Assembly (NCBI GenBank): GCA_017396025.1
Contig: JAFQNF010000046.1
Location: 18,788-82,787 of the forward strand
Origin: a bacterium
GTDB taxonomy: Bacteria > Cyanobacteriota > Vampirovibrionia > Gastranaerophilales > Gastranaerophilaceae
Length of the DNA: 64,000 nt
Direction of reading: 5' to 3'
Part shown: positions 10,581 through 33,422 of the stretch, one piece after another
Position numbering within the stretch: the stretch's first letter is position 1
Layout: every line of letters starts with the position of its first letter
The notes under the pieces: generated by a model
What the model saw: the letters and a program-made list of their open reading frames with translations, nothing else
The model's database searches: none
What the model was told of the DNA's origin: nothing
Program-made: the position numbers and the translations under genes

Positions 10581-10592
10581 TATAGTTAACTT

Positions 10593-11576
10593 ATGACTAA
10601 AACAAAAAAAATCACAACAATCTTTATTCTACTTGTTATATTATTAATTTCTTTGTACCTTGCAATGTACGCAGGGTACAAAGATTTTGGTTATAATATG
10701 CTATATAAAGCCTTTAATTTGGGCGAAGATACAGATAGTATGATTTTAACCGTACTTCGATATCCAAGAGCATTAAAAGCGTTTATAGCTGGTGGTTGTT
10801 TAGCTTTAGCTGGGATGTTTATGCAATCTGTATCTAAAAACCCATTAGCAGAACCTTATATCACAGGTATTTCTGCAGGCGCAGGTCTTGGAATTGTTCT
10901 ATCAATCCTGTTATTTAACAGTTCAAACTATTCAATTTTTGGATTTATTGGTGCATTAATTTCATCTGCACTAGTTATTATATTCTCTGGTTTAAGCAGA
11001 TTTTCAATAACTAAACTAATCTTAATTGGTTTATCAATGAATATATTTGTAAGTTCCTTAATTTCACTAATAATTCTAGTAAACCCATTAAAATCTTATA
11101 TGATGATGTTAATTTTATCTGGCGGAGTTACAAATAACGAAATAATTTCTAATAAAATGCTTGTTATTGTATTTTGTTTGTTAATGATTGCAAGTGCGAT
11201 TTTCATACCAAAACTAAACTATTTAAGATTAGATAGCGAACTGCTTGAAACAAATAAAAATAAAAAATATTTATACACAGTTATTGTAATTATAATTGCA
11301 TCATTTTTAACATCTTTAAGCGTATTTGCAGCAGGCATTTTAGGTTTTGTTGGTATTATCGCACCACAAATTTCAAGAATGCTTTTAGGACAAGATTATA
11401 GATGGTTATTCATTGCAAACACTCTAATCGGTGGAAGCTTGATTTTATTAGCAGACTATATAGCAAGAACAGTAATCTATCCACTTCAAGTTCCATTAGG
11501 TTTAGTTGTAGCATTTATTGGCGCACCTGTGTTTGTGTTCTTTTTAACTAGAAAAGGAGATATGTTCCGTGATTAA
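10593..11576 (+). CDS. ABC importer permease, FecCD/BtuC family
   Basis: 327 aa, multi-pass, with typical FecCD features (RYPRALKAFIAGG.LALAG..MQ, GIIAPQISRML, PLGLVVAFIGAPVFVFFL). Confidence 0.9.
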   Translation: MTKTKKITTIFILLVILLISLYLAMYAGYKDFGYNMLYKAFNLGEDTDSMILTVLRYPRALKAFIAGGCLALAGMFMQSVSKNPLAEPYITGISAGAGLGIVLSILLFNSSNYSIFGFIGALISSALVIIFSGLSRFSITKLILIGLSMNIFVSSLISLIILVNPLKSYMMMLILSGGVTNNEIISNKMLVIVFCLLMIASAIFIPKLNYLRLDSELLETNKNKKYLYTVIVIIIASFLTSLSVFAAGILGFVGIIAPQISRMLLGQDYRWLFIANTLIGGSLILLADYIARTVIYPLQVPLGLVVAFIGAPVFVFFLTRKGDMFRD

Positions 11577-12291: not shown

Positions 12292-13054
12292 CACTGTTTG
12301 CCTAATAATTGGATTAACTTCATATGCAACAACATATGCAAGTTTATCACCTGTTCCAACAGAAATTATTTATGCACTTAATGCTGAAAAAAATCTAGTT
12401 GGTGTTTCTACAACTTGTAATTTTCCAGAAGAAACAAAAGAAAAACCAATTATTGGCGATACCTATTTTGTTAATATGGAAATGATGGTAAAACTAAAAC
12501 CAGATTACCTTTTTACAATGTCATCTGCAAAACCAATGCTCGGACAACTATCTCAAACAAAAACAAAACCAATTTATTTTGAATTTACGAAAATAGAAGA
12601 AATTTATGATGCTATAAACTATATTGCAAAACTTACAAACACAGAAGAAAATGCACCTAAATTGATAGCTGATATAAAAAAGAAAGTCGAACAAAGCAAA
12701 ACAAAAAATTCTAAAAGAATTCTATACGTAGTTCAAACAGAACCACTAATTACAATTGGAGAGAAAAGTTTTATAACAGATATTATCGAAAAATCAGGTC
12801 ACACATCAGTTACTTCAAATATTGAACATTATTACCCTAATATTACGTTAGAGTATGCAATGAAAATGGACCCTGATGTTGTTATAATTTGTTTTCCAAC
12901 AAACGTTGAAAAAATACAAAAACTGTTGCCTAATGCTAAATTTTTATACTTAACAGAAAATCAACGTGACATAATAAACCGTTCTGGTCCAAGAGTTTAT
13001 GAAGCAGTTAAGTTATTTGCAGATTTAAACTTGAATGAAAAACCTACAAATTAA
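12260..13054 (+). CDS. Periplasmic substrate-binding protein (BtuF/class 8 SBP-like)
   Basis: Signal/lipoprotein-like N-terminus, LKPDYLF and DPDVVII motifs typical of siderophore/cobalamin-binding SBPs. Last gene of the riboswitch-led operon. Confidence 0.8.
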   Translation: MKISIYKYLISTVCLIIGLTSYATTYASLSPVPTEIIYALNAEKNLVGVSTTCNFPEETKEKPIIGDTYFVNMEMMVKLKPDYLFTMSSAKPMLGQLSQTKTKPIYFEFTKIEEIYDAINYIAKLTNTEENAPKLIADIKKKVEQSKTKNSKRILYVVQTEPLITIGEKSFITDIIEKSGHTSVTSNIEHYYPNITLEYAMKMDPDVVIICFPTNVEKIQKLLPNAKFLYLTENQRDIINRSGPRVYEAVKLFADLNLNEKPTN

Positions 13055-13922
13055 TTTTTATCTCTGTCCACTCATCACCAATTTGTTTTCCTTGAAGAGT
13101 ATTTCTCTTTAGTCTTATTTTTTTATAATGTTTATCAGAAATCAACTTTCCTGTAGAATCATAAATCTGATATAACTTTCCTTTTCTTACAAGAATATAT
13201 TCACCAAGATTTTTTATTTTGTCATATTCTGGAAATAAAATAAGCGTTCCCTTATTATTAGTTAAACCATATTTTCCAGATATTTTTAAAACATATGTGT
13301 CATAAAGTGATTTTATTTTGTCATACTCATTTTTCACTAAAATATTATTAGAACTATCCATCATTCCATAGTACCCATTTAATTTAGTGATATATAAATT
13401 TTTACCGACTTCTTCTATTGATTTATATTTTAACGGAGAAATAGTATTTTCACTTAAGTCGATAATTCCGTACTTCTTATCTGCTCGAACAAGCAACCTA
13501 TTCGGCGCAATTTCTCGCATCGATGTATATTTTCTTGATGAAATAATTTCACCATCTGCTCTCATCAAATTATATTTTTTATTTTTTCTAAATATAAAAT
13601 AATGATTTTTCTTATATACTAAATGACTTGCATTTGTACAATTATCCTGTATTATCGAACCATCTTTGTTCATCAAAGTATAATATGTATTCGAATATCT
13701 TCTACCATCTGAATAATAACGAACAACTGTTTCGGAAGTCATTTTATGTTCATCGCAATCAGAAAATTTATGTTCTTGGGAATATGAATCAGTTCTAATC
13801 AAATATGAACTTGAAGAAGAATGATGCCTGTGAGGAGGTGGAGTCTTTGGCGGCTTTGCAATTGCTAAAGAACTAAAGCAAAATATTACACATAATAGCA
13901 ATATAAATTTTTTCTTCATCAC
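13044..13922 (-). CDS. Exported WG/KWG-repeat protein
   Basis: Signal peptide (FILLLCVIFCFSSLAIA). Repeated units KYGIIDLSENTISPLKYKSIEE, YYGMMDSSNNILVKNEYDKIKS and KYGLTNNKGTLILFPEYDKIKN match the WG-containing repeat layout. Confidence 0.6.
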   Translation of the reverse strand: MMKKKFILLLCVIFCFSSLAIAKPPKTPPPHRHHSSSSSYLIRTDSYSQEHKFSDCDEHKMTSETVVRYYSDGRRYSNTYYTLMNKDGSIIQDNCTNASHLVYKKNHYFIFRKNKKYNLMRADGEIISSRKYTSMREIAPNRLLVRADKKYGIIDLSENTISPLKYKSIEEVGKNLYITKLNGYYGMMDSSNNILVKNEYDKIKSLYDTYVLKISGKYGLTNNKGTLILFPEYDKIKNLGEYILVRKGKLYQIYDSTGKLISDKHYKKIRLKRNTLQGKQIGDEWTEIKINL

Positions 13923-20171: not shown

Positions 20172-23100
20172 ATGAGTAAAAAGAAATTTTTTGTGGAGAG
20201 CACGTGCATTTTATCTATTGCTTGTTTGTTGACTCTGACAACAAGTAGTATTAGTGCGAGTGCATACTCTCCAACACTTCAAGAGAAATCAGCTTATAGA
20301 GCAACGCCTGTCCAAGATGTTTCTAACTCAATGTTTACAATACACCAATATAACTCAGAAACAGGAATAATTGACGCAATCAATTACGAGTTAGGACTTA
20401 AAAAAACAGAATATGGAAGTGGAAATGCATCTAAAACGTATTCAATAGGAGTGTTAGAAAATTATAACATTGATATCACAGGGAAATACTCTAGTGAAAA
20501 TTTAGGCGACCATATTTACATTAAAAGTAAAGACTATTCTTCAACAAATTACACATCAGACTACGTTGAGATGAGCAAAGCTACTGTATGGTCAAGTTAC
20601 GCTTTCGGTGGTGCAATTACGAACTTTCAAGGTAAAATGGGTGATATTTCTGGTATTTTTATCGGAAACAGCGCTATAACAGACAAAAAACAAGCGTGGG
20701 CTGGTGCAATATTAGCAAGAGGAAGTATTGGAGATATAACATCTGACTTCATTGGTAATTTTGCAGATTCTAGCGTTACAGAAGCATCTGGTGGTGCTAT
20801 TGCTGCAGCACAATACAACGTAGAAAGCATTACAGGTGACTTTATTGGTAACTATGCAAAAGGAGAACTAACTTCTGGAGGATTTGGTGGTGGCTTGTAT
20901 ATTGTTAATAACTCAGTGATAAAAACAGTAACTAGTAATTTTATAGCAAACTCAGCACGTTCAGAAACTGCCGGAGCTTACGCTGGGGCAGTAGATATAT
21001 ATAGAAATAGTAAAATAGAAAACTTAACCGGTGACTTTATCGGAAACTATGCAGATGGATATAGAGAAGCTTACGCTGGTGCAATTGAAATCGTTGGTTC
21101 TGCAGATTATATAACAGGTGATTTTATAGCAAACTATGCAACATCTAAAAACGGTATTGCACTTGCAGGTGCTGTTGAAATAATGGGAACAGTTGGAGAT
21201 ATCACAGGAAACTTTATTTCAAACTACGTAAAATCAGAAAATGATTCAGCCTTTGGTGGCGCTTTTTATACAGAAGGCAGTTTAAACAATTTAAAAGGTG
21301 ATTTTTTCTCAAATTATGCTATTTCAGAAAAAGGAAACGCCTATGGTGGTGCAATATATTCATCAGACGCAATAATTAACGAAATTGATAGCAGTTTTTA
21401 CGGCAATTATGCAACAGCAAAAGAAGGAATAGCACAAGGTGGAGCTATTTATACTAATAATGATTTAAATTTCAGTGCAGATAATAAAACTATCGCATTT
21501 GCAGAAAACTACACGGAATCACAAGGTGTTCGTGACGACAATGCCGTATATGTTGATAATACTGATGCAACACTTACATTTAATTTAAAAAACAATGGTA
21601 ATCTTTTAATTAAAGATAATTTTAACGGTCAAATAGGATATAACGTTAATATAATTGGCGATGGAACAAATACCTTATTTTTACAGAACGACCTTAATAA
21701 TGCAGATGTTCTTTTTAACAATATAATGTTAAATACCATTGACGGCAAAAGCAAAGTTTACAATTTTAATTCACTTTCAATTGCAAACAATATTAATTTT
21801 ATTGCTGATGTTGATTTCCAAAAAGAAGAAATGGATAGATTCTATACAAATGATTCATATAATATTCAAAATGGTTCACAACTGAATATTAATGCCTTGA
21901 ATTTTTTAAACGAACAAAAAAAGGATAAAGTTTCTATATTTTTTGCCGAAAAAGGCTTAAAAGATAATGTCGTATATAGTGGAACAAAGAAAATTGTTAC
22001 CCCAATATATGTTTATGATATTGCATACGAAAACAAAGATGACGCTGGATATTTTGTATTTACAAGAGGTTCAGCATCAAATGGTGTTAGCGGATACAAC
22101 CCTGCAACATTGGTTTCTGAAACGAACTCAACTGTTGGTGCAATAGGTACAATGAACCAAGCTATGACTTATGCTTTTGTTCATTCTGATACAAGTATGA
22201 ACATTCCTTCTGCAATTCGTATAGGAATGAAGAATCAAAACAAATACGCTTCTGCTTCACTTGCAGATATTTCAGGTGCAGGCAGATTTTCACCACTATA
22301 TCTTCCTTCTAATGAGGGTGCAAGTTTTTGGGTAAAACCTTACGCTGTATTTGAAAACGTACCATTAAAAAATGGACCAAAAGTTTCAAACATTTCTTAT
22401 GGTACATATATCGGGTTTGATACAGATATCAAAGAACTTAGAAGAGGCTGGCAAAGCGTATATACAGGTTATATTGGATATAACGGAGCTTCTCAAAGAT
22501 ATAGTGGTATTGATACAGTACAAAATGGTGGTTTACTTGGTGGAACACTTACTTTGTATAAATGGAACTTCTTTAATGCAACAACACTAAGCGTTGGTAG
22601 TAACGTTTCTGATAGCCAAACAATGTATGGACATGATGACTATGCAACTTTATTATCTGGCATAGGGAACAAAACAGGTTATAATATTGAATTCAAAGAT
22701 GGAAAAGTTATATTACAACCAAATTTATTACTATCATATACTTTTATAAATACATTTGATTACACAAACTCTGCAGGTGTAAACATTGATAATAAACCAC
22801 TACATTCTTTACAAATTGTTCCAGGATTTAAAATCATAGGAAACCTAAATAATGGATGGCAACCTTATTTAAGCGTTTCTATGAATTGGAATCCATTAAT
22901 GGGCGCAAAAACGAAAGCAAACAATATTGAGCTCCCAAAAACAGAAATTAAACCATACGTACAATATGGAGTAGGCGTTCAAAAAACAATAAAAGACAAT
23001 TTAACAGCATACGGACAAGCAATGGTTCAAAATGGCGGAAGAAACGGTGTATCCTTAACGGCTGGAATACGTTGGCTACTTGGCAGTAAAAAAGAAAAAC

Positions 23101-23195
23101 AAGAAAAAGAAATTATAACAACTAGTAAAAAAGTTTTTAAAAAGCTATCACAAGAAGAAAAAGAAAAAATTATTAAAAAAGAATATGATGTATAA
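20172..23195 (+). CDS. Autotransporter with Pmp-type (GGAI / FxxN) passenger repeats
   Basis: Signal peptide ends SISASA. About 10 units with a roughly 28-30 aa period (GDFIGNYA...GGAI). The C-terminal roughly 280 aa is beta-barrel-like, with alternating hydrophobics, and ends GIRW. A 39-aa K/E-rich tail follows. Confidence 0.8.
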   Translation: MSKKKFFVESTCILSIACLLTLTTSSISASAYSPTLQEKSAYRATPVQDVSNSMFTIHQYNSETGIIDAINYELGLKKTEYGSGNASKTYSIGVLENYNIDITGKYSSENLGDHIYIKSKDYSSTNYTSDYVEMSKATVWSSYAFGGAITNFQGKMGDISGIFIGNSAITDKKQAWAGAILARGSIGDITSDFIGNFADSSVTEASGGAIAAAQYNVESITGDFIGNYAKGELTSGGFGGGLYIVNNSVIKTVTSNFIANSARSETAGAYAGAVDIYRNSKIENLTGDFIGNYADGYREAYAGAIEIVGSADYITGDFIANYATSKNGIALAGAVEIMGTVGDITGNFISNYVKSENDSAFGGAFYTEGSLNNLKGDFFSNYAISEKGNAYGGAIYSSDAIINEIDSSFYGNYATAKEGIAQGGAIYTNNDLNFSADNKTIAFAENYTESQGVRDDNAVYVDNTDATLTFNLKNNGNLLIKDNFNGQIGYNVNIIGDGTNTLFLQNDLNNADVLFNNIMLNTIDGKSKVYNFNSLSIANNINFIADVDFQKEEMDRFYTNDSYNIQNGSQLNINALNFLNEQKKDKVSIFFAEKGLKDNVVYSGTKKIVTPIYVYDIAYENKDDAGYFVFTRGSASNGVSGYNPATLVSETNSTVGAIGTMNQAMTYAFVHSDTSMNIPSAIRIGMKNQNKYASASLADISGAGRFSPLYLPSNEGASFWVKPYAVFENVPLKNGPKVSNISYGTYIGFDTDIKELRRGWQSVYTGYIGYNGASQRYSGIDTVQNGGLLGGTLTLYKWNFFNATTLSVGSNVSDSQTMYGHDDYATLLSGIGNKTGYNIEFKDGKVILQPNLLLSYTFINTFDYTNSAGVNIDNKPLHSLQIVPGFKIIGNLNNGWQPYLSVSMNWNPLMGAKTKANNIELPKTEIKPYVQYGVGVQKTIKDNLTAYGQAMVQNGGRNGVSLTAGIRWLLGSKKEKQEKEIITTSKKVFKKLSQEEKEKIIKKEYDV

Positions 23196-25489: not shown

Positions 25490-25669
25490 AAAACACTCCT
25501 AAACTACCTAATTACTATAATAAATTTAGCTGTATATAGCAAATATTATGATAAAAAATGTAAAGTTAAGTAGAAAAAGAGTAAACAATTCATTAAAATG
25601 AAAATACTCAAATTAAATTTTGTACAAAAAACCACTCAAATAAAATTTTACATAAAAGGAGACAAAGTT

Positions 25670-26038
25670 ATGAAATGCTTCAACCATCATGATAGAGATG
25701 CTTTTGGGATTGACATAATCACTGGAAAAGGACTTTGTTTAGAATGTCTTGAAGAGAACAAGGGTTTTATAATAGAAAAAAATAGCAAAATTTCAAAATT
25801 AGCCTCACAACATCTCGCTCGATTATATAAAAGTTCTGACCCACAAAATCTACTCAAAATATTTAAATATATTATGTTAACTAGCTCAGCACTATATTTT
25901 ACTCTTGCTGGTTATGAATACTTTGTAAAATCAGATATATATAAATGTTTAGATGATTTTATTCTTGGTTGTGTAGCGTTAGCTGCACTCTTTATTGTTT
26001 TTTCTTTTAGCAAAATTTTAAAAAGGGAAGGAAAATAA
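25670..26038 (+). CDS. Zn-ribbon/B-box-like membrane protein (tandem paralog 1)
   Basis: I prefer the start MKCFNHHDRDAF at 25670 (AAGGAG upstream). It has a C..HH...C..C N-terminal motif and two predicted TM helices. Confidence 0.55.
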   Translation: MKCFNHHDRDAFGIDIITGKGLCLECLEENKGFIIEKNSKISKLASQHLARLYKSSDPQNLLKIFKYIMLTSSALYFTLAGYEYFVKSDIYKCLDDFILGCVALAALFIVFSFSKILKREGK

Positions 26039-26415
26039 TGAAATGTTTTAATCATCACGATAGAGATGCTTTTAGCATTGATCCAATTACAGGCAAAGGC
26101 CTTTGCGTAGAATGTCTTGAAGATTGGCAAGGGCACTTAATTGAAAAAAGTAATAAAACATCACGAAATGGAGTACAATACAAAATCAAAGCAATAAAAT
26201 ATAGTAAAATGCTTACATTAAGTAGTATATTATTTGGCTTATTTGCAGGTGCCCATTTTTTCTATTTATTTGTATGCTTTTATTTCTTTACAGAAGAAAA
26301 AACGATATATGGATCTTTTATTTCTCTATTAGGTACAGTCACTATGTTTTATTTCTTAATTGATGCAATAAAATACGGTTATTTACAGATAAAAAACAAA
26401 ACTACTCGTTTGTAG
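26038..26415 (+). CDS. Zn-ribbon/B-box-like membrane protein (tandem paralog 2)
   Basis: MKCFNHHDRDAFSIDPITGKGLCVECLED is near-identical to the N-terminus of paralog 1, followed by two TM helices. The last 7 codons lie within the left 20-nt direct repeat. Confidence 0.6.
   Translation: MKCFNHHDRDAFSIDPITGKGLCVECLEDWQGHLIEKSNKTSRNGVQYKIKAIKYSKMLTLSSILFGLFAGAHFFYLFVCFYFFTEEKTIYGSFISLLGTVTMFYFLIDAIKYGYLQIKNKTTRL
26391..26410 (+). repeat. Left copy of a perfect 20-nt direct repeat (putative attL core)
   Basis: AAAAAACAAAACTACTCGTT, identical to 33061-33080. Confidence 0.8.
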
Positions 26416-26420
26416 AAAAT

Positions 26421-26471
26421 CTGGCAATTTCATAGCAAATGTAATTGAAAATTAATCGCTAGAATGTTTGA
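26421..26471 (+). repeat. Imperfect direct repeat, left arm copy
   Basis: CTGGCAATTTCATAGCAAATGTAATTGAAAATTAATCGCTAGAATGTTTGA aligns with 32974-33027 at roughly 70 percent identity by eye. Confidence 0.5.
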
Positions 26472-26520
26472 TTTGTTTGAACTTGAGGCTAACTTCCCGC
26501 AGTACCATAGCAAAATTTTA

Positions 26521-26602
26521 TTTTTGCCACTTTTGCCGAATTCTTGCCAAAGTTTTTGCCGTTTTTTCAGTTGTCCTTGTTGCATTTTGGCGATTTTTGG
26601 CT
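26521..26602 (+). repeat. Helically phased T-tract/GCC motif array
   Basis: TTGCC at 26524, 26533, 26544 and 26556, then TTGGC at 26587 and 26597. Spacing is 9-12 nt. The segment is locally more GC-rich than its surroundings. Confidence 0.5.
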
Positions 26603-26662
26603 TGAGCTTTGAGAGATATTAAAGGAAATTACGGTTAAAGATAGCAATTAAGCACGCTATTT

Positions 26663-27223
26663 TTATGTTATTTCATCAATTTTTTTTATTATAATTTCAT
26701 CAACAACTTTAAAAGCCTCTCGTAATGTCATATGTTTGTCATTTGTTGTGAGTAAGTCGTCGTTACTGATAATTGTAATATCTGTAAAATATTGCATAAT
26801 ATCAGCTATTGAATAAATTGCTTGGTTAATACGTTTTCTTCCTTCAAAATTAAAGGGAACAGTAACAATTATTTCTGTATTAATTCCCATATCTTTTGCG
26901 ATTTTTGCTATTACAGGTGTAGCTCCAGAACCTGTTCCGCCACCTAAACAACTATAAAGAATTAATGTTTCTGTATCATTAATAAGTTCTTTAATTTGGT
27001 CTTTTGCAAGTTCTGCCCAAGCTTTTCCTTTATTAGGATTGCCACCTGCACAATGACCGTCATCTCCAATTATTAATTTTTTATCAGCGAGGCTTAATTC
27101 CATCAATTTCTCGTCGCTGCCAATTGAAATAAGTTCATAGTTGCTAATATGGCTTTCTTTTAATGTTTTTGTAATTCTGATAGCACCTGAACCAACAGTA
27201 ACTATTTTAATTTTCTTTTTCAT
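26663..27223 (-). CDS. Stand-alone FtsZ/tubulin GTPase domain (no C-terminal domain)
   Basis: 186 aa. Tubulin signature GGGTGSG, AGGNPNKG (T3), VTVPFNFEGRKR (T5) and ISNDDLL (T6). It is collinear with E. coli FtsZ residues of about 10-200 and ends at helix H7, before the T7 loop. The T1 loop is degenerate (GSGAIR instead of GGGGGN). Confidence 0.75.
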   Translation of the reverse strand: MKKKIKIVTVGSGAIRITKTLKESHISNYELISIGSDEKLMELSLADKKLIIGDDGHCAGGNPNKGKAWAELAKDQIKELINDTETLILYSCLGGGTGSGATPVIAKIAKDMGINTEIIVTVPFNFEGRKRINQAIYSIADIMQYFTDITIISNDDLLTTNDKHMTLREAFKVVDEIIIKKIDEIT

Positions 27224-27303
27224 GAGTTATCCTCCAATTTTTTATTATAATTTGAGAATAATGCATGAACATGTCAGTTATGGACGCAACTAATAAAAAA
27301 TAT

Positions 27304-28083
27304 CTATTTTATTTCGTAAATGTATTTTTCACGAGTTGTATCTACATTTATATTTTGAAGCGTTACCTTTTTTTTATCATTTAAAACTTTTTTTCTAGCT
27401 AAAAGATGATATGGTTTTTCATTTATTTCGTGAAAAAATGTTTTAAATTGGCAATTAGAGTAGTGGCTTTTAATTAAATTAATTATTGTTCTTTCATCAA
27501 AATCATTGTTTCCAAATGCAAGAACAAAGTCTTTTGATATTTTTGTTTCAAGATATTTTTTTATAAAAGATATATTATCTTCTTTTTCATAATTTGTTGG
27601 GATTTTTTCTTCGTTACTTAAAATCCTTTTCAGTTCATTAGGGCAATGATGTCTGTATGAATATAAGTTAATGACAGCAAAATATTTAAATCCAACATTT
27701 TCTTCATTATTACAAACCATTGTTGCCCACTTCCTCGCTCTATTCATTGTGGGGTCAGATTCGTTTGAAGATGCATACGATGGATTTAACATTATATAAG
27801 TTAAAATTCCTTTTCGTGTCTTATAAAAATTGTCGTTAGTTATTTCTTCAATATAAAAATATCTTGAACAAGGAATATTCTGCATGTTTTCATAAATATT
27901 TTTTAGACACTTTTCATTTTTATAGGCTTTGAATAATTTCTCTTTTTCTTTTTTTTTATATTTTTCTTTTGAAAAAATAATAAAACCTTTAATTTGTTTT
28001 TCTATATCTTTTATTTCATATTTTTTTGGTTCAAGTTTTTCTTCTATTATACCTTTTATTGTATTTATATCCTCTATTTCCAA
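27304..28083 (-). CDS. DUF1643-like protein with a K/E-rich N-terminal extension
   Basis: LTYIMLNPSYASSNESDPTMNRARKWA...YFAVINLYSYRHHCPNEL matches the DUF1643 layout as I recall it (mlNPS.a....DpT.rrc..fa......v.NLfa.r...p..l). It lies upstream of, and co-oriented with, the mini-FtsZ gene. Confidence 0.5.
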   Translation of the reverse strand: MEIEDINTIKGIIEEKLEPKKYEIKDIEKQIKGFIIFSKEKYKKKEKEKLFKAYKNEKCLKNIYENMQNIPCSRYFYIEEITNDNFYKTRKGILTYIMLNPSYASSNESDPTMNRARKWATMVCNNEENVGFKYFAVINLYSYRHHCPNELKRILSNEEKIPTNYEKEDNISFIKKYLETKISKDFVLAFGNNDFDERTIINLIKSHYSNCQFKTFFHEINEKPYHLLARKKVLNDKKKVTLQNINVDTTREKYIYEIK

Positions 28084-28236
28084 AATTAAAATCCTTTGTT
28101 TAAAAATTCTTTATCAATAATACTTTCTTAATTATATTTGTTTCTTCTTAAAATTCAAATTAATTTAATCTTTGTTATTGTATGTCCATATGTGACGCAT
28201 ATTTGTTCTATTGTTTATATAGGAGAACTAATCTTA

Positions 28237-29450
28237 TGAAATTAGAACAAATAAAAAATTGCAAAGACGAATATTGTACACAATTTACATTTAATCTTAT
28301 AAAAATATTAAAAAAAGAGTGTAATCTCCCAAATAATGTGAGACTTTTTTGTTTATCGTATAGAAATTTAGTTTATTATTTCTTTTATAAAAATATTGTT
28401 TTTGCTGTATCTGGAATTACCGTTGAAAACAAAAAAGAAATTAAAAATATCGATTGTATCTATAAAATTATTCTATTAAAAAATACGCCAATTTCTGTGG
28501 ATGATATTGAAGTTGAAGTAGTAAAGTCTAATTCTGATAATAAATATTCACTAGAAAATTTTTTAGATTTTTTAAATAGTCCTTCAAATATAACCGAAGA
28601 CATTGATTTGCCCTATTATAAAATCATATATTTATTTCATCAGATAAATAGAACTAGATTTGAATATGGTGATTTCGTTTTTTATATAAAGCGTGATAAT
28701 GACTACTCTCTTTATTTAAATCTTTATGCTAAAAATAAAAAAAATAATAATATTGTAAAATTATATCTTCCATATATTTGGGAAAGAGATGAAAAAACTT
28801 TTCTTTTTTATAAAAAGATACCAACTAACTTAAGAAAAATATATGTGGATGATTTTTCTAAAAATTTATCTGATTATCAAAAGAGAAAATTTAAAACAAG
28901 TCTTCTAAAATTTATACAAGAAGAAAATAAATTTTTTAATATTAAAAATTTTTATGTAATTTATTTAATAAAACAAATTATTCAACCTGTTGAATTTGAT
29001 ACAGGATGGATGGCACTTCGTATTTTTCGTTCATGTTCTGAGTTTTCGAATATATGGGTTGATGACTTTTTATCTTACGGTAATAAACCTTATTTCTTAA
29101 TTGCAAATAGTAGCAATGTATACGACATTACTAAAATCGCTATTATTGACTTTAAAGAACCCAAATATGTTACTAAAGATATATATAAACAAAATCTTAT
29201 CAAATTTCTTCATTGGGAACTTTCAAAGGATTATTTAAAAAAGTTAGTTGAATTTTTAAAACAACCATATAATGGGTGGGATTCTCTTTCTATAAAAAAT
29301 GGAGTAAAAACAAATTGGCAAAAATTAATATTTAAATATAACTTTAATACTGTTCTTGCTTGTGATTTGGAAAATAAAAACGCCATATTGGACTATGAAA
29401 TTTTGCCATTAGATTTACCAATTCCTGATTATACAAAATTATTGAATTAA
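28237..29450 (+). CDS. Orphan protein (island operon gene 1)
   Basis: I prefer the start MKLEQIKN at 28237 (TAGGAG upstream); the track ORF starts at 28182. About 404 aa, K/N/Y-rich, with no motif I recognise. Confidence 0.5.
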
Positions 29451-29472
29451 TATAAAAACATAGGAATGGATT

Positions 29473-30000
29473 ATGAAAAATAAAAATAAACAAAAAAATA
29501 ATACAGAATTTAATCAAGATGAAATTATAGAAATGGATAAGCGTGCTGCATTAATTGGAAAAGCAGATACATATTCTTCAGAAGAAATATTGAAAGAATT
29601 TGGTTATTTTAGCTTGAAAGATGAACTAGTCAAAACTCATTTATTTAATGCTGAGAATAATGAAACTCCAGAAGAAACTGAAAGTTTTTTTCTAACACCA
29701 TTGAAGCAAGATGAAATAGGGCTTCCAATGTGTGTGCATCTTCGATGTATACCAAATAAAGGAGAACCTCCTTTTTTACGTTTTCAAAATGATAGAAATA
29801 ATACATTGAACAGTAATTGGGTAAAAATCTATATTGATGGTCAAATCGACAATTATGAAAACAAAAAATTAGTTTTTACACAGTCCGAATTAAATGATTT
29901 AAAAGATTGGATAAATTTAAATAAAGAAGTCATAACAAAACATTATTATAAAGTTTATAGTTCGTTGGAAGTTTGTCACAAGTTAAGAAAATTCAAGTAA
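29473..30000 (+). CDS. Orphan protein (island operon gene 2)
   Basis: 175 aa, 22 nt after gene 1. No confident family assignment. Confidence 0.5.
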   Translation: MKNKNKQKNNTEFNQDEIIEMDKRAALIGKADTYSSEEILKEFGYFSLKDELVKTHLFNAENNETPEETESFFLTPLKQDEIGLPMCVHLRCIPNKGEPPFLRFQNDRNNTLNSNWVKIYIDGQIDNYENKKLVFTQSELNDLKDWINLNKEVITKHYYKVYSSLEVCHKLRKFK

Positions 30001-30033
30001 GAATATTTAAGAAAAATTATAAGGAGCAAAACA

Positions 30034-30381
30034 ATGACAAAAGAAGAAAACAAAAAACGAATGTATTTTCACGGCGAATGTGTAATTGCTGAAATTACAA
30101 AATTACCTAAAAATCTCAAGGCTAGAAATGACAAAGATTCTATAATGATTGCTGAGTCAGAAACAGTCGGCAATGAACATAGAATTAGAGTCAAAGAAGG
30201 TGTTGAATTTTATGAAGATGCACACGGGATTCTGTATATGAAAAATACTGTTCCAACAGAGGTTTATTGCTTACACGCAGAACGCCACGATACAATCACT
30301 CTTCCCGAAGGACTCTGGCAAATCGACAAAGCTCAAGAGTATGATTATTTAACTGCAAAAATTGTATATGTTGCAGATTAA
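30034..30381 (+). CDS. Small phage-type beta-rich protein (island operon gene 3)
   Basis: 115 aa with AAGGAG upstream. FHGECVIAEITKLPKNLK...MIAESETVGNEHRI...LHAERHDTITLPEGLWQIDKAQEYD matches a small protein family common in phages (GDVll..v..lP.....vLA.GE.TGH.H.....H.eH..i.lp.G.y.v..QrEy). This is from memory only. Confidence 0.5.
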   Translation: MTKEENKKRMYFHGECVIAEITKLPKNLKARNDKDSIMIAESETVGNEHRIRVKEGVEFYEDAHGILYMKNTVPTEVYCLHAERHDTITLPEGLWQIDKAQEYDYLTAKIVYVAD

Positions 30382-30397
30382 GGAGAGTTTATTTACA

Positions 30398-31678
30398 ATG
30401 ACAATTCCAAATGTTTATATAATTAAATCGGATAATGTTGACGAGATTGTAAATGAACTAAAACTCTACAGGCATAAATGTCAATTTTCTATTGTTGAGT
30501 CAAATAGTGCAAAAGATCTTCTTGCACAAATTGGTATTCTAGAAGAAGACAAGAAAATTTTTCAAGATTTAAATAAGCGCCATTCCCAAATAATTACAGA
30601 AAACTATAACAAAGCAGTTGAAAATATCAGATACAATAAAAAAATTGAACAAAGAATGGCGATAAAAAAATACATTGATTCTATTTTAATGGATGACACA
30701 AGACAATTATATGATGATCAAATCAAAGCACTTTGTAATGAATTTTATTTTGAATTTATTTATTCAAATAAAAAATTGTGTACACAGTTACCAAAACCCA
30801 ATATAAAAATTTTAAATTATTTTGATAAAGACATTCTAAAATCTTTACTTACAACTAATGCTTATAAAAAAGTTTTTAATAATTATTTTAAAAAAACATT
30901 TAAATATATAAAAAGACCACCTTATGAAGAAATATATTTCCCTTATTATGACCGTTTTGAGAATTGTGATAATGGGGTTTTGAATTATTATTCAAGTTTT
31001 GGTGGTGTTTTTCAAGCTCCGGAAGGATATTATAATCTATATTTTGGCGATTTCAGAGAAATTGATTCTAAATGTGAAATATTTCTTAATTGGTATAAAA
31101 AAGCTTTTAATGTACTTGCAATGTTTTATAACGAAAACAATAACACTATTTATGTTATAAAGCGTCCCCCAAAAGGCTGTTTTACGATGGCAGAAAATGG
31201 TGATATTACCATTATTTCTGAGAATAAAAAACAATTTATTAAAGGTCATTTATCATTTGACTATATAGTTAGAACCCCTGCAGAAGAGTTAGATATCAAA
31301 GACTATGCATCAATAAGAAATGCAGATGCAAAGGCTAAATTTGTCGAGAAAGTTGGATTTGAGAAATTATTTAAATTTGGCATTTTAATTGATACTTATG
31401 AAAATTATCCGGAAAATGAAATGTGGGCAAAATCCGAATATAAAATTATCGATATGCATAAAATTATTCCTCCGAGAAGAAAACAAAGCCAAGTTGGCGC
31501 CAGTATGGGCATTGCAGAGCGTTTTTCATACGCCCCATTTTTATACATGAAAAACCAAACAACAGGTGTTTATCATTTGGAAGGCTTGCACCCACGTTGC
31601 AAAACTCTCTATGATGCACTCAAAATGCGTTATAACGGTTTAAACATCAAAGATTATGACATTAAAGATATTAAATAG
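30398..31678 (+). CDS. Orphan protein, C-terminal half possibly DUF6745-like (island operon gene 4)
   Basis: I prefer the start MTIPNVYIIK at 30398 (AAGGAGAG about 11 nt upstream). The C-terminal IRNADAKAKFVEKVGFEKLF...FLYMKNQTTGVYHLEGLHPRCKTLYDALKMRYNG resembles a domain with the pattern NaevRr..iErvG.erf ... v.N.t..dG......l.Vp....a.eAvAwt. Low certainty. Confidence 0.45.
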   Translation: MTIPNVYIIKSDNVDEIVNELKLYRHKCQFSIVESNSAKDLLAQIGILEEDKKIFQDLNKRHSQIITENYNKAVENIRYNKKIEQRMAIKKYIDSILMDDTRQLYDDQIKALCNEFYFEFIYSNKKLCTQLPKPNIKILNYFDKDILKSLLTTNAYKKVFNNYFKKTFKYIKRPPYEEIYFPYYDRFENCDNGVLNYYSSFGGVFQAPEGYYNLYFGDFREIDSKCEIFLNWYKKAFNVLAMFYNENNNTIYVIKRPPKGCFTMAENGDITIISENKKQFIKGHLSFDYIVRTPAEELDIKDYASIRNADAKAKFVEKVGFEKLFKFGILIDTYENYPENEMWAKSEYKIIDMHKIIPPRRKQSQVGASMGIAERFSYAPFLYMKNQTTGVYHLEGLHPRCKTLYDALKMRYNGLNIKDYDIKDIK

Positions 31679-31727
31679 TTTATAACTATTTTAAAATAAA
31701 ATATAATTATATAGAAAGTGATAAGTA

Positions 31728-32960
31728 ATGAATAATAATTTTGCTGATTTTTCTTGTGTAAGAATGGATGAACAAAACCCAAAATGGGAACACTCTATTT
31801 CTCGTGAAATTGAAATATATAAAAAAGATTATGATATAAGAAACCCATTTGAACGTGATTTACATAGACTTACTCACTCAAATGGTTATAGAAGATTAAA
31901 GAATAAAACACAAGTATTCTTTGCACCACAAAATGACCATATTTGTACAAGAATAGAACATGTTACACATGTTTCTTTAGTTGCTGAAACTATTGCAAGA
32001 TATTTAAGATTAAATACTGATTTAGTACGAGCAATAGCGACAGGTCACGATATAGGGCACGCACCTTTTGGACATCAAGGCGAAACTATTCTTAATGAGA
32101 TAGCTAAAAAATACGAGCTAAAAAAATTCTGGCACGAAGGAAACAGCTTACATTTTATTGATAATATTGAAACTCTACCAGACTATCAAGGTTATCAAAG
32201 AAACTTAGATTTAAGTTATGCAGTTCGTGATGGAATAGTTTGTCATTGTGGAGAAGTCGATGATAAAATTCTTTTACCGCGCAATTCAGAAAGAATTTTA
32301 AGTGAAATTAAAAGAGAAGAAAAAGAATGTGCATTTACATATGAGGGTTGTGTTGTAAAAATTTCAGATAAGATTGGTTATATTGGTCGTGATATTGAAG
32401 ATGCACTATCTTATGGCATATTGTCCGAATATCAAATACAAGAATTAGAAGATATTATTCAAAATACATACAAAGATTTAAAATTAACTGAAATAAATAC
32501 AACAGTTTTAATGCATAAATTCATCATAGACTTGTGCGAAAATTCATCACCAGAATTGGGTTTGTGTTTTTCTGATGATTGCTTTAAAGCATTGCTAAGA
32601 ATTAAAAAGTTTAATTATGAAAATATCTACAACCACTCAAGGCTATTACCATTTAAAAACTATGCAAGACTTATCATAAATACAATTTTTGATAAACTTG
32701 ATGAACTCTATGGAATAAATTTAGTTTTAAATTTTAAAAAAGAAAAAAACTTTTTCCCTGAGCTAATTAAACATTTTGAAGATTGGTTAATAAAATATTC
32801 AAACTATGATTTAGAAAAGAAAAAAGAACTTAAATTAGAAAATAAAATTGTTTATAACTTAGAAGAACAAGACGAATATCGAAAAGCTATTATAGACTTT
32901 ATTTCAGGAATGAGTGATAACTTCGCCATTGCAACATTTAACGAAATAATTAGTTTTTAA
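31728..32960 (+). CDS. dGTPase-like HD-domain triphosphohydrolase (island operon gene 5)
   Basis: RDLHRLTHSNGYRRLKNKTQVF, TRIEHVTHVS, GHDIGHAPFGHQGE and the C-terminal DFISGMSDNFA are all typical of the Dgt/dGTPase-like family. Confidence 0.85.
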   Translation: MNNNFADFSCVRMDEQNPKWEHSISREIEIYKKDYDIRNPFERDLHRLTHSNGYRRLKNKTQVFFAPQNDHICTRIEHVTHVSLVAETIARYLRLNTDLVRAIATGHDIGHAPFGHQGETILNEIAKKYELKKFWHEGNSLHFIDNIETLPDYQGYQRNLDLSYAVRDGIVCHCGEVDDKILLPRNSERILSEIKREEKECAFTYEGCVVKISDKIGYIGRDIEDALSYGILSEYQIQELEDIIQNTYKDLKLTEINTTVLMHKFIIDLCENSSPELGLCFSDDCFKALLRIKKFNYENIYNHSRLLPFKNYARLIINTIFDKLDELYGINLVLNFKKEKNFFPELIKHFEDWLIKYSNYDLEKKKELKLENKIVYNLEEQDEYRKAIIDFISGMSDNFAIATFNEIISF

Positions 32961-32973
32961 GCAAATTTAGAGC

Positions 32974-33027
32974 CTGTAGCGATTCCATAGAAAATGAATT
33001 GCAAACCCTTGCTATGAAACTGTTTGA
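32974..33027 (+). repeat. Imperfect direct repeat, right arm copy
   Basis: CTGTAGCGATTCCATAGAAAATGAATTGCAAACCCTTGCTATGAAACTGTTTGA aligns with 26421-26471. Confidence 0.5.
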
Positions 33028-33060
33028 CACTTTTTATAAAACTGCAAGACTGTTGTTAAC

Positions 33061-33080
33061 AAAAAACAAAACTACTCGTT
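33061..33080 (+). repeat. Right copy of the perfect 20-nt direct repeat (putative attR core)
   Basis: AAAAAACAAAACTACTCGTT, identical to 26391-26410. Confidence 0.8.
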
Positions 33081-33100
33081 AAAATACAACAACGAAACAA

Positions 33101-33148
33101 AAAAGAGAGCCTTTCGACTCTCTTTTATTAATCTGGGGCGGAAGGATT
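33101..33148 (-). repeat. Duplicated tRNA-Gln 3' fragment plus terminator (copy A)
   Basis: AAAAGAGAGCCTTTCGACTCTCTTTTATTAATCTGGGGCGGAAGGATT is near-identical to 33288-33336. It contains the last 16 nt of tRNA-Gln and a GAGAGTC-GAAA-GGCTCTC terminator hairpin (minus-strand sense). Confidence 0.8.
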
Positions 33149-33285
33149 GTCTTGAATTTGCTCCACGCTCACAGAGTATCGCCTTTGTGGCTTTGCCACA
33201 GTCGGCTTTTTCTGTTCGCTATCCGGCATAAATGCCGTACGCAAATCCGCTCGAACCTCCTTCTCCGATTCTCTTCCTTCCGCAT
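33149..33285 (-). other. GC-rich spacer between the two tRNA-3'/terminator copies (integration scar or structured RNA)
   Basis: It contains GGAGGTTCGA (minus sense, 33251-33260), which is the 5' half of the tRNA-Gln T-arm. Hairpins at 33186-33200 and 33224-33237. An 8-bp inverted repeat, GCGGAAGG (33138-33145) / CCTTCCGC (33276-33283), brackets it. Confidence 0.4.
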
Positions 33286-33321
33286 AAAAAAAGAGAGCCT
33301 TTCGACTCTCATTTTATTATT

Positions 33322-33394
33322 CTGGGGCGGAAGGATTCGAACCTCCGAGATGCCTGGACCAAAACCAGGTGCCTTACCACTTGGCGACGCCCCA
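33322..33394 (-). tRNA. tRNA-Gln (anticodon UUG)
   Basis: Minus-strand TGGGGCGTCGCCAAGTGGTAAGGCACCTGGTTTTGGTCCAGGCATCTCGGAGGTTCGAATCCTTCCGCCCCAG folds as a cloverleaf. Acceptor is TGGGGCG/CGCCCCA, the anticodon stem is CCTGG/CCAGG with loop TTTTGGT, and the T-arm is GGAGG-TTCGAAT-CCTTC. It is near-collinear with E. coli tRNA-Gln. No CCA is encoded. A GAAA-tetraloop terminator follows (33286-33310). Confidence 0.92.
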
Positions 33395-33422
33395 ATAAGG
33401 CTGTCTGTCTCTCGACTCTTAT

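Follow-up and report, generated by a model that had tools for sequence, protein, structure and literature searches.

A strain-variable insertion bounded by a perfect 20-bp direct repeat, without a recognizable recombinase gene, in a Gastranaerophilales chromosome

A strain-variable insertion of 6,670 bp (26411-33080) was found in an uncultured gut member of the Gastranaerophilales, within a chromosomal window of 64,000 nucleotides, which is the whole stretch of DNA that was analyzed (Table 1). This island lies in the 3' end of a gene encoding a Zn-ribbon membrane protein, for which the Pfam and NCBIfam searches gave no match, and carries seven genes between two non-coding arms. Its GC content is 26.8%, compared with 30.7% and 30.9% in the 10-kb flanks.

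Table 1. Coordinates, within the window, of the target gene, the island and the adjoining relic.
Feature	Position	Strand	Evidence or remarks
Target gene, Zn-ribbon membrane protein, 125 aa	26038..26415	+	tandem paralogue of 25598-26038; last codons inside left repeat
attL core, left copy of the perfect 20-bp direct repeat	26391..26410	+	2 matches, 0.00 expected; junction identical in L001-L008
Left non-coding arm, 252 bp	26411..26662	.	inner repeat 26424-26471
CATAGCAAA motifs in left arm	26430-26439 and 26505-26514
137-nt left-arm block	26474-26610		85% identical in variant island L018
Four TTGCCR repeats in left arm	26524-26561		spacing 9, 11 and 12 nt
FtsZl, FtsZ/tubulin GTPase domain alone, 186 aa	26663..27223	-	Pfam Tubulin 2.7e-26
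DUF1643 protein, 259 aa	27304..28083	-	N-terminal extension ~90 aa; Pfam PF07799 2.6e-12; phrog_3230 2e-13
o422, no family match	28182..29450	+	gene-caller start 28236 (404 aa); 99.5% identical in variant island L018
o175, first gene of conserved trio	29473..30000	+	58-63% identical homologues adjoin o115 in L108, L113, L114, L117
o115, small all-beta protein, most conserved cargo gene	30034..30381	+	78-83% identical across contexts
o438	30362..31678	+	gene callers: 426 aa from 30398
dGTPase-family HD phosphohydrolase, 410 aa	31728..32960	+	Pfam HD and HD_assoc; PADLOC dGTPase 8.8e-52
Right non-coding arm, 100 bp	32961..33060	.	inner repeat 32979-33027
CCATAGAAAA in right arm	32985-32994
Inverted TTTCATAGCAA in right arm
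Palindrome TTGTTAACAA at boundary of right arm and repeat	33053-33062
attR core, right copy of the 20-bp direct repeat	33061..33080	+	repeat search and junction comparison
Older relic adjoining the island, outside it	33098..33395	-	found at empty and occupied sites alike
Relic part: terminator and 17-nt copy of tRNA-Gln 3' end	33098-33150
Relic part: GC-rich segment, 135 nt	33151-33285
Relic part: second terminator and intact tRNA-Gln	33286-33395

The first-pass annotation of this DNA had described a perfect 20-nt repeat around the segment and had proposed a search for empty sites in relatives and for further copies of the repeat. Both copies of the 20-mer, AAAAAACAAAACTACTCGTT, were recovered at a spacing of 6,670 bp and on the forward strand, with no further match in the window even when two mismatches were allowed; shuffles expect 0.00. 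Across 119 fetched loci, the 20-mer was found only at the homologous att positions, except for one viral contig that had been retrieved via that same pattern and is otherwise unrelated. A precise empty site was present in L009, L010, L014 and L015. The empty site of conspecific strains matched the prediction exactly, reading cagatAAAAAACAAAACTACTCGTTaaaatacaac in L015, the same sequence but with ...CTCATT in L009 and L010, and ...ACTATTCGTT in L014. When the empty-site contigs were compared with the window by BLAST, the alignment ended at 26407-26410 and restarted at 33061, and the flanks were 98.4-99.6% identical. Since conspecific strains carry exactly the predicted empty site, the segment is a real strain-variable insertion.

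The left repeat copy encodes the C-terminus of the target ORF (...KNKTTRL*). The right copy, followed by AAA, would read ...KNKTTR* and has no coding role. At empty sites the ORF has 124 aa and ends in KNKTTR*, or in KNKTTH* (L009 and L010), which bore out the earlier proposal that the insertion restores the 3' end of its target. A tRNA-Gln(ttg) is located on the minus strand at 33321-33395, and 17 nt from its 3' end are repeated perfectly at 33132-33148, 51 bp beyond the right repeat. This tRNA-Gln 3' fragment, which had been associated with the right end of the island, is real but forms part of an older, distinct relic that empty sites carry too. The imperfect direct repeats noted inside both ends were recovered as well, and the local alignment of 26424-26471 with 32979-33027 reached a score of 30, while shuffles gave 15.7 +/- 2.5 with a maximum of 27.

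Regarding the cargo, the original calls of a FtsZ/tubulin GTPase domain, a DUF1643 protein and a dGTPase-family HD protein were reproduced, and the other four proteins had no match in Pfam, NCBIfam or PADLOC. FtsZl ends after helix H7 and has neither the T7 loop nor the C-terminal domain; it scored 149 bits against TIGR00065 (cut-off 295), covering model positions 17-203 of 353. Its family comprises 12 clusters of 186-191 aa, and alignment of the family profile with the FtsZ of S. aureus extended no further than H7 (E 2.7e-40). The AF2 models of o115 (pLDDT 82.5) and o438 (pLDDT 78) gave no fold match in the PDB, and in BFVD the o115 fold matched an uncultured Caudovirales protein (TM 0.74, E 4e-5). 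The o438 family has 265 cluster representatives at E<=1e-3; its members have in common a C-terminal domain that is conserved over about 140 aa and is DUF6745-like in relatives, where matches to DUF6745 were obtained.

The HD protein is the only one with a match to a defence model (PADLOC, Table 1). It resembles the anti-phage dGTPases of dNTP-depletion defence (PADLOC dGTPase model; NCBIfam NF041026) in its membership of the HD-domain dGTP triphosphohydrolase family and its location on a mobile island. Nevertheless, it clears only the generic TIGR01353 cut-off (153.0 bits against 152.35) and misses that of the NCBI anti-phage dGTPase model NF041026 (111 against 400 bits), and the defence system suggested in the first pass was not upheld.

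In related genomes, o175, o115 and o438 have homologues that follow immediately after a large serine recombinase (Pfam Resolvase 4e-40 and Recombinase 2e-18) on its downstream side, usually accompanied by a short FtsZ-like GTPase, at the tRNA-abutting end of prophage-like elements. These three genes, previously taken for orphans, are therefore a recurrent trio. The gene order in L108-110 is terminase, ParB-methylase, short tubulin, DUF2924, WG repeat, recombinase, o175-like, o115 and o438, and the arrangement is the same in L114-116 and L117-119. The elements stop at tRNA 3' ends, and L108 and L109 use two different tRNAs. With these temperate phages bearing large serine integrases the island shares the short tubulin/FtsZ GTPase, an o175-like gene, o115 (about 80% identical) and o438 (37-43%), which all sit at the end with the attachment site. 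In contrast, it has no recombinase, DUF2924, WG-repeat, terminase or ParB-methylase gene, its arms are unrelated in sequence and its target is a protein-coding 3' end instead of a tRNA. The HD protein was missing from every other context of the trio. In the window, FtsZl and DUF1643 lie in inverted orientation with respect to the trio; hence, simple deletion from an L108-type prophage does not account for the island. Since the trio recurs downstream of a large serine recombinase, the island is best seen as a recombinase-less derivative of this prophage-like family.

Part of the cargo was also observed at a second locus. L123 and L124 contain window positions 29016-33040 at 99.5% identity (4 kb) followed by a different flank, the homology with variant island L123 stopping at 33040. 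In L018-L023, o422 is 99.5%, FtsZl 90% and the 137-nt arm block 85% identical to the window, and unrelated genes adjoin. L018 and L123 may be two ends of one insertion and come from the same species, or not. The sample ERZ28593681 contained both the empty Zn-ribbon site (L010) and a variant island (L019). The claim of mobility was thus supported, in the evolutionary sense, by cargo 99.5% identical between different flanks. The core-proximal 20-60 bp differ between the variant and the window islands, so one recombinase would not obviously serve both. A second copy of the left arm was located at L123:4904-4994, 880 bp past the variant island, as a sign of tandem arms.

A recombinase or transposase could be recognized neither in the seven island genes, in agreement with the first-pass annotation, nor in any window ORF of 80 aa or more. 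The reading that we favor, with a probability of about 0.6, is that the island is a mosaic, recombinase-less offshoot of temperate elements, inserted site-specifically and moved only by a recombinase from elsewhere. Its ancestors would have been temperate elements with a large serine recombinase, and the cassette a mosaic derivative that lacks it. For entry, an attP-like junction made up of right arm, 20-bp core and left arm would have recombined, site-specifically and conservatively, with the Zn-ribbon gene at its 3' end, the arm repeats CATAGCAAA and TTGCCR being predicted protein-binding sites for this integration reaction. Subsequent movement would depend on a matching recombinase acting in trans, or in cis from an accreted element. 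The motif enrichment and the structure of the arms count in favor of this reading, whereas the reconstructed attP and attB showed no significant dyad symmetry and the arms are unlike the ends of the serine-recombinase elements, which count against it. The earlier idea of a non-autonomous island or satellite stood as regards a discrete, repeat-bounded insertion that lacks a recombinase and is mobile in evolution, but not as regards a satellite or a defence function.

The island could instead be a dead relic, left by a single insertion through an element-borne recombinase that has since been lost, and now an immobile remnant of a prophage or island that varies from strain to strain only by loss or homologous replacement. 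The absence of a recombinase from island and window would agree with this, as would the lack of a circular or attP junction in the JGI contigs, which seem not to contain this organism, the element decay at the locus shown by the adjoining 135-bp relic between tRNA-Gln fragments, and the splitting of o422 by a 70-bp gap in L126. We consider it unlikely, given that neither att copy has departed from the perfect 20-mer, all seven ORFs remain intact in over ten assemblies and the 99.5% identical cargo at the second locus points to a recent move. It is improbable that the island is autonomous, with integration and excision catalyzed by the unannotated o422, by o438 with its conserved C-terminal domain or by DUF1643: o115, o438 and o175 are found alongside a genuine large serine recombinase, and hence are not substitutes for one, the DUF1643 counterparts in L018, L024 and L111 share no more than 26-35% identity between islands that are 80-90% alike in their arms and in FtsZl, and no catalytic motif of the known recombinase classes was found. 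Nevertheless, a family could not be assigned to four of the seven proteins, o115 and o438 lack a fold match in the PDB, and the invariant polar residues of o438 form an enzyme-like set. DUF1643, moreover, is carried by every island that lacks a serine recombinase (window, L018, L024 and L111), is absent where one is present (L108, L114 and L117), and accompanies ccr recombinases and also occurs inside an ISL3 element.

A functional phage satellite of the PICI, P4 or PLE type, induced, replicated and packaged by a helper phage, appears very improbable, because no integrase, regulator (repressor/HTH), replication (primase, Rep), capsid-remodelling or packaging-hijack gene was detected in the island, and GenBank phages and IMG/VR gave no match. 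In its favor are the size of the island, which is within the satellite range, the phage-related cargo (phrog matches; the BFVD match of o115), the iteron-like TTGCCR repeats adjoining a tubulin-family gene and the location of the relatives in prophages. If the segment were ancestral and the repeat pre-existing, slippage or recombination between the 20-bp copies would produce precisely the observed empty site, with no insertion at any time. Such a history is highly implausible, since chance would not be expected to yield a perfect pair of 20-mers, the right copy plays no part in coding, the GC content is below that of the flanks, the cargo also occurs at another locus and in prophage-like elements, and it lies upstream of tRNA-Gln and NusB in 0 of the 80 related loci fetched from GTDB species representatives. 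Finally, a chimeric join in a metagenome-assembled contig might be suspected in an uncultured lineage in which many contigs break within the island or at the tRNA-Gln. This can practically be discounted: identical left and right junctions, with about 100% identity, were independently assembled in at least ten contigs by different assemblers and from different samples, including L008, a 125-kb scaffold covering the entire island and both flanks.

The model of movement in cis or in trans follows the behavior of the cis-mobilizable elements (CIMEs) of streptococci, as defined in PMC5704250, and of the pseudo-SCC cassettes. Like CIMEs, the island has a perfect att-type direct repeat at a gene 3' end and no recombinase of its own, recombinase-bearing related elements exist and there are signs of tandem arms (L123:4904-4994). 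CIMEs, however, derive from conjugative ICEs or from IMEs and their cis-mobilization has been demonstrated experimentally, whereas the island has phage-like relatives, with a terminase in L108, and lacks conjugation genes, and its mobilization is inferred. The SCC cassettes of staphylococci are inserted in the 3' end of an ORF, which the insertion regenerates, and are bounded by direct repeats some 15-20 bp long; this family uses a large serine recombinase, which pseudo-SCC cassettes do not carry. The island shares with them the position in an ORF 3' end that is regenerated, the direct repeats, a DUF1643 gene and, in its relatives, a recombinase of the large serine type. It differs in that its target is not rlmH, its host belongs to a different phylum and it has no cch/polA replication genes. 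Furthermore, the insertion may have been made by a tyrosine rather than a serine recombinase: the common cores left by large serine recombinases are usually short, so that the 20-bp repeat fits a tyrosine recombinase equally well or better. DUF1643 is a mobile-element accessory gene, found in the conserved accessory set of the SCC ccr complex (PMC10581047) and as ISL3 cargo (PMC13231603).

The growing end of FtsZ is the one that exposes the C-terminal interface, and capping is an established mode of inhibition (PMC9897490). Because the GTP-binding face is kept and the T7 loop and C-terminal interface are absent, FtsZl is a candidate capper, and its end just before the T7 loop suggests that it would cap filament ends. 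As a hypothesis, this resembles MciZ, MipZ, lambda Kil and T7 Gp0.4 in an element-encoded block of host FtsZ polymer growth at the (+) end (PMC9897490, PMC3961180, PMC13423816); none of the known inhibitors is a truncated FtsZ, which FtsZl is; they are ParA-like ATPases or small, unrelated proteins.

The island is a hitch-hiking mobile cassette of a general kind already known, with uncharacterized cargo. Judging by the families involved, these accessory genes would serve the element or its lysogen: the HD protein would hydrolyze dNTPs, and FtsZl could dock on the growing (+) end of the host FtsZ filaments and cap them.

The first-pass annotation had placed seven cargo genes between two copies of a 20-nt direct repeat, and its description of both was confirmed. 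The cargo consists of a stand-alone FtsZ GTPase domain (FtsZl), a DUF1643 protein, a dGTPase-family HD protein and four proteins (o422, o175, o115 and o438) with no match in Pfam, NCBIfam or PADLOC. The repeat, AAAAAACAAAACTACTCGTT, was perfect and occurred exactly twice in the window; no further copy was present at up to two mismatches, and shuffled sequences led us to expect none. Its left copy supplies the last codons of a Zn-ribbon membrane ORF, which is a tandem paralogue of the ORF preceding it, and its right copy is followed by AAA. The imperfect repeats proposed just inside both ends were significant as well (score 30 vs 15.7 +/- 2.5 in shuffles). The GC content was 26.8% in the island and about 30.8% in the flanks.

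Features of the island, its target gene and the surrounding region (window coordinates)
Feature	Position	Strand	Remark
WG_beta_rep protein, chromosomal	13044-13922	-
Second strain-variable indel	20172-23195		1007-aa ORF
Both tandem paralogues	25598-26415
Tandem paralogue of the target ORF	25598-26038
Target ORF, Zn-ribbon membrane protein	26038-26415		125 aa
20-mer, left copy (attL core)	26391-26410
20-mer, right copy (attR core)	33061-33080
Island	26411-33080		6,670 bp
Left arm, non-coding	26411-26662		252 bp
Right arm, non-coding	32961-33060		100 bp
Imperfect inner repeats	26424-26471 and 32979-33027
Four TTGCCR repeats	26524-26561		spacings 9-12 nt
tRNA-Gln 3'-end copy	33132-33148		perfect, 17 nt
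Folding region (core 33151-33285)	33098-33338	-
tRNA-Gln(ttg)	33321-33395	-	Rfam
Reconstructed attP junction			...ACTGTTGTTAAC-AAAAAACAAAACTACTCGTT-TGTAGAAAATCTGG...
Reconstructed attB junction			...TTTACAGAT-core-AAAATACAAC...

Both alleles of the site were retrieved from public assemblies by exact look-up of the flanking proteins. Occupied sites with the same junctions as the window came from several samples and assemblers (contigs L001-L008, L013 and L120-L122), and in contigs L009, L010, L014 and L015 the site was empty, the Zn-ribbon gene leading directly into the tRNA-Gln/NusB region. The predicted empty site was found exactly, since L015 reads cagatAAAAAACAAAACTACTCGTTaaaatacaac; the core carried a single-base change in L009 and L010 (CATT) and a different one in L014. 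When the empty contigs were compared with the window by BLAST, the alignment broke at 26407-26410 and restarted at 33061, and the identity of the flanks (98.4-99.6%) indicated that these contigs come from conspecific strains. The cargo was found upstream of tRNA-Gln and NusB in 0 of the 80 related loci fetched from GTDB species representatives. An IMG/VR contig containing the 20-mer (L107) had unrelated flanks and proteins, and this match was taken as chance. The 20-mer is not frequent, empty sites exist and the 80 related loci lack the cargo at this position, so that the conditions named in the first-pass annotation for its refutation do not hold. Its structural interpretation is right.

The two tandem paralogues at the target both encode small CxxC membrane proteins. 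They share about 50% of their residues, and a 102-nt repeat in their DNA is 79% identical. In a contig of another species (L048), the interval between the LMW phosphatase and tRNA-Gln lacks both paralogues, along with the rSAM and adenylate-kinase genes.

The lack of a recombinase in the island was borne out by Pfam, PHROGs and NCBIfam, in which 0/7 cargo proteins matched a recombinase or transposase family. Pfam detected none among the 56 ORFs of 80 aa or more in the window either, part of this search having been run at E<=1e-8, where a very weak match could be missed. A crude phmmer comparison with E. coli XerD, lambda Int and Hin gave no match in the window; the sole match was in contig L100, at an unrelated locus. 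Dyad symmetry was not significant in the reconstructed attP and attB (spacers of 2, 6, 7 and 8; arms of 12 and 22), a result that points to no particular class of recombinase. The arms of the island are unlike the ends of the serine-recombinase elements described below, and a common core of 20 bp is long for a serine integrase. Of the five matches to YCATAGMAAA in the window, three lie in the arms, as do the four TTGCCR repeats; the 20-60 bp next to the core differ between the window and a variant island considered below. The attP-junction pattern had 0 matches in the JGI metagenome contigs, which seem not to contain this organism. Given the perfect 20-bp repeat, the regenerated ORF, the precise empty site and the arms with repeated motifs, the insertion would be read most economically as a conservative site-specific event in which an attP-like junction recombined with the 3' end of the Zn-ribbon gene.

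Housekeeping functions are encoded in the flanks of the island (DAP dehydrogenase, LMW phosphatase, adenylate kinase, NusB, FtsY, a Nuo/Mrp-type complex), and NusB was 91% identical to that of MAGs named Gastranaerophilales (Cyanobacteria/Melainabacteria group). To the right of the island, a 53-bp repeat pair formed by a terminator and the tRNA 3' end (last 17 nt) brackets a GC-rich segment of 135 nt. The tRNA-Gln fragment was considered as an end of the island and rejected, since this structure is also present at the empty sites. A third allele (L012:1-650, compared with the window at about 33286) had a right flank 99.8% identical, another hairpin abutting the tRNA 3' end, and a different minus-strand gene at tRNA-Gln, of at least 149 aa and with no Pfam match. 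Many MAG contigs of other Gastranaerophilales species break at or inside tRNA-Gln, which suggests that this flank is an integration hotspot.

The minus strand around the 135-nt segment forms a fold of -56 kcal/mol (z = -4.8), closed by a stem to which the tRNA-derived 3' end contributes. Three between-strain SNPs preserve the pairing; the segment is species-specific and missing in L012. Rfam found only the tRNA and had no match for the segment, which may be what is left of an element that had integrated at tRNA-Gln, or else a gene for a small tRNA-derived RNA. The second strain-variable indel of the window lies further to the left and holds an ORF with no match in Pfam or NCBIfam. It is absent in the conspecific L009 and L010, where the DAP dehydrogenase gene directly adjoins that of the LMW phosphatase, and no repeat was seen flanking it.

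FtsZl is a protein of 186 aa that contains only the FtsZ/tubulin GTPase domain (Pfam Tubulin, 2.7e-26). Its alignment with the FtsZ of S. aureus begins where the GTPase domain starts and extends to helix H7; the protein ends before the T7 loop, and against TIGR00065 it covered positions 17-203 of 353 with 149 bits, the cut-off being 295. FtsZl has neither the T7 synergy loop nor the C-terminal domain (PF12327), on which the lower interface and the hydrolysis of GTP within the polymer depend. The family comprised 12 clusters of 186-191 aa, 56-98% identical and with an invariant GGGTGSG signature, all of them from ENA or Logan gut metagenomes; searches of GTDB species representatives, JGI metagenomes and IMG/VR found none. 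FtsZl is not FtsZ, TubZ or PhuZ. TubZ and PhuZ are two-domain tubulins with a C-terminal tail, an adaptor and a centromere, whereas FtsZl is single-domain, the island has no TubR-like gene, and the match to the PhuZ phrog was weak (2e-4). FtsZ filaments grow at the end exposing the C-terminal (T7) interface, and capping at this end is a known form of assembly inhibition (PMC9897490). The activity considered most likely is that FtsZl, having the nucleotide face only, could dock at the growing end of FtsZ and block its extension.

Protein o438 had been listed as an orphan, a description that did not hold: a full HMMER scan retrieved 265 cluster representatives with its C-terminal domain of about 140 aa, and some relatives reach Pfam DUF6745. 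Around homologues of o438 and o115 a recurrent gene order was observed, namely a short tubulin/FtsZ GTPase (180-219 aa), DUF2924, a WG-repeat protein, a large serine recombinase, an o175-like protein, o115, o438 and the end of the element. Ahead of the short GTPase, those elements have a ParB-methylase and DUF5681 on one strand; L108 has a terminase there as well. The large serine recombinase has 525-569 aa and matches Pfam Resolvase (4e-40) and Recombinase (2e-18). One and the same element ends at the 3' ends of two different tRNA genes in L108 and L109, and the elements of L117 and L113 likewise end at a tRNA. Identity across contexts was 78-83% for o115, 37-43% for o438 and 25-30% for FtsZl. 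The recurrent order indicates that the window island holds genes usually found next to the integrase, at the attachment-site end; it would be the accessory part of temperate, prophage-like elements of this bacterial group, minus the integrase. This link to serine-integrase elements is new with respect to the first-pass annotation.

The AlphaFold model of o115 was all-beta (pLDDT 82.5) and that of o438 had a pLDDT of 78; neither gave a significant Foldseek match in the PDB. In BFVD, o115 matched two uncultured Caudovirales proteins. The PDB sequence matches of o438 were restricted to low-complexity pentatricopeptide repeats (PPR) and were rejected. The island had no match to GenBank phages in DNA or protein, and IMG/VR yielded nothing with FtsZl, o438, the o115 alignment or the conserved arm word. 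The last 30 or so residues of o175 recur in separate mini-ORFs of 48-86 aa that are dispersed within the elements with a serine recombinase (L108:7507-7599 and 10554-10640; L114:7203-7307 and 8719-8802). A pair formed by a reverse transcriptase (RVT_1) and a DnaB_C-like ATPase adjoins FtsZl in one contig (L025:550-2279) and the o175-o115-o438 trio in another (L114:12651-14354); it is a possible defence-type module of this element family. The window also encodes a chromosomal WG_beta_rep protein, whose repeat family is the one found alongside the serine recombinase in related elements.

A variant island was found in contigs L018-L023, which carry a 90%-identical FtsZl, a 99.5%-identical o422 and a 31%-identical DUF1643 protein in a different gene neighbourhood, together with a 137-nt left-arm stretch at 85% identity to the window. 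Contigs L123 and L124 match window positions 29016-33040, from o422 to the dGTPase gene and most of the right arm, at 99.5%, and then continue into unrelated sequence. A second left-arm terminus about 880 bp beyond (L123:4904-4994, equal to L018:2542-2452 at 96.7%) suggests that the elements are arranged in tandem or accreted. Downstream of the variant island (L123:4024-6409, and L124), some 880 bp of non-coding-looking sequence are followed by the left-arm copy and by unrelated minus-strand ORFs; a 92-aa ORF of L123 considered as an IS200/RAYT-like fragment was dropped after Pfam gave nothing. From one sample, ERZ28593681, came a contig in which the Zn-ribbon site is empty (L010) and another with the variant island (L019). 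FtsZl was present in yet other contexts (L024, L025 and L111), of which L111 is a small recombinase-less island with RtcB, DUF1643, FtsZl, o115 and o438, around which no flanking repeat was found. The variant-island contigs point to a mosaic cargo and to the recent occupation of at least two loci, L018 and L123 being only candidate ends of one insertion. A 70-bp gap breaks o422 in one sample, where it is called as two ORFs (L126:668-680, window about 28657-28727), which may reflect decay of that cargo gene.

The HD protein scored 153.0 bits against the generic dGTPase family, barely reaching the cut-off of 152.35, and 111 bits against the anti-phage dGTPase NF041026, below the cut-off of 400. 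PADLOC assigned it to dGTPase at 8.8e-52, with a model that does not separate housekeeping Dgt, and also, much more weakly, to Cas3b (HD-domain); among the contexts compared, the protein was restricted to this island. PADLOC recognised nothing in the other cargo proteins. The label of a defence system, proposed earlier, was consequently not upheld, and defence is an association, not a finding, resting on the neighbours seen in related elements: DarT-NADAR, a reverse transcriptase with a DnaB_C-like ATPase, UvrD-PDDEXK and WCX proteins. The DUF1643 protein, which might have a UDG-like fold (a possibility given no weight here), gave no match in PDB searches. DUF1643 occurs in the islands with no serine recombinase (the window, L018, L024 and L111), and the elements with one (L108, L114 and L117) carry DUF2924 and a WG-repeat protein and no DUF1643. 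This split, of 4 vs 3 cases, may be a coincidence or mark an alternative mobility module.

Several known kinds of element share part of this organization. Lacking a recombinase, the island corresponds to the streptococcal elements termed CIME (PMC5704250) and to the pseudo-SCC cassette of staphylococci, which also carries DUF1643 (PMC10581047). Like a CIME, it has retained attL and attR as direct repeats at one defined target, for which precise empty sites exist, and its seven genes have no recombinase, relaxase or type IV secretion match. A CIME derives from an ICE or IME and is mobilised in cis by accretion with an incoming element; the relatives of the island are prophage-like and not conjugative, and the tandem arm copy in L123 hints at accretion. 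With SCC and pseudo-SCC cassettes it shares the flanking direct repeats and the DUF1643 accessory gene, but SCC has the 3' end of rlmH (orfX) as its target and CcrAB or CcrC as its recombinase, and here the target is a Zn-ribbon membrane ORF and no ccr gene is present.

The other candidates fit less well. The island had been proposed as a satellite, but phage satellites (PICI, P4-like, PLE) have their own integrase, regulator, replication module and helper-packaging genes, and Pfam, PHROGs and NCBIfam detected no such hallmark gene, so this label is not supported. A prophage with a large serine integrase would have a Resolvase and Recombinase protein and virion or packaging genes, which are absent from the window and present in the relatives L108, L114 and L117. 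An element targeting a tRNA inserts in the tRNA 3' end and has a tRNA-fragment repeat at its far side, while the island is bounded by the 20-mer instead. By its behaviour and anatomy, the island would be an integrative cassette that has no recombinase and resembles a CIME or a pseudo-SCC cassette, probably derived from phage-like and not conjugative elements: a known kind of cassette, here in a poorly studied phylum.

A broader reading, to which we give roughly one chance in five, joins two proposals. At the integration end of gut Melainabacteria temperate elements, the half-length proteins of about 180-190 aa (GTPase domain and H7, no T7 loop) would be "bottomless" FtsZ subunits that act sub-stoichiometrically as caps where the filaments of host FtsZ grow, and arrest division, and the extremely conserved o115 with o175 and o438 would form an undescribed accessory system of large serine recombinase modules, able to detach and spread as recombinase-less cassettes.

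The Gastranaerophilales and other Melainabacteria are uncultured and, to our knowledge, their mobile elements are almost undescribed. At this locus, the occupied and the empty site form a clean natural pair in which the 20-bp core and the arms are defined, and which could serve as a direct substrate for candidate recombinases. The locus also provides evidence that accessory modules of serine-integrase prophages can detach and circulate as recombinase-less cassettes beside a tRNA-Gln hotspot, and it ties two little-explored protein sets, the half-length FtsZ family and the unusually conserved o175-o115-o438 trio, to temperate elements. Should none of this hold, the island would be just another decayed integrative element; if a half-FtsZ does cap host filaments, mobile elements would have in it a new means, transparent in its mechanism, of controlling the division of their host.
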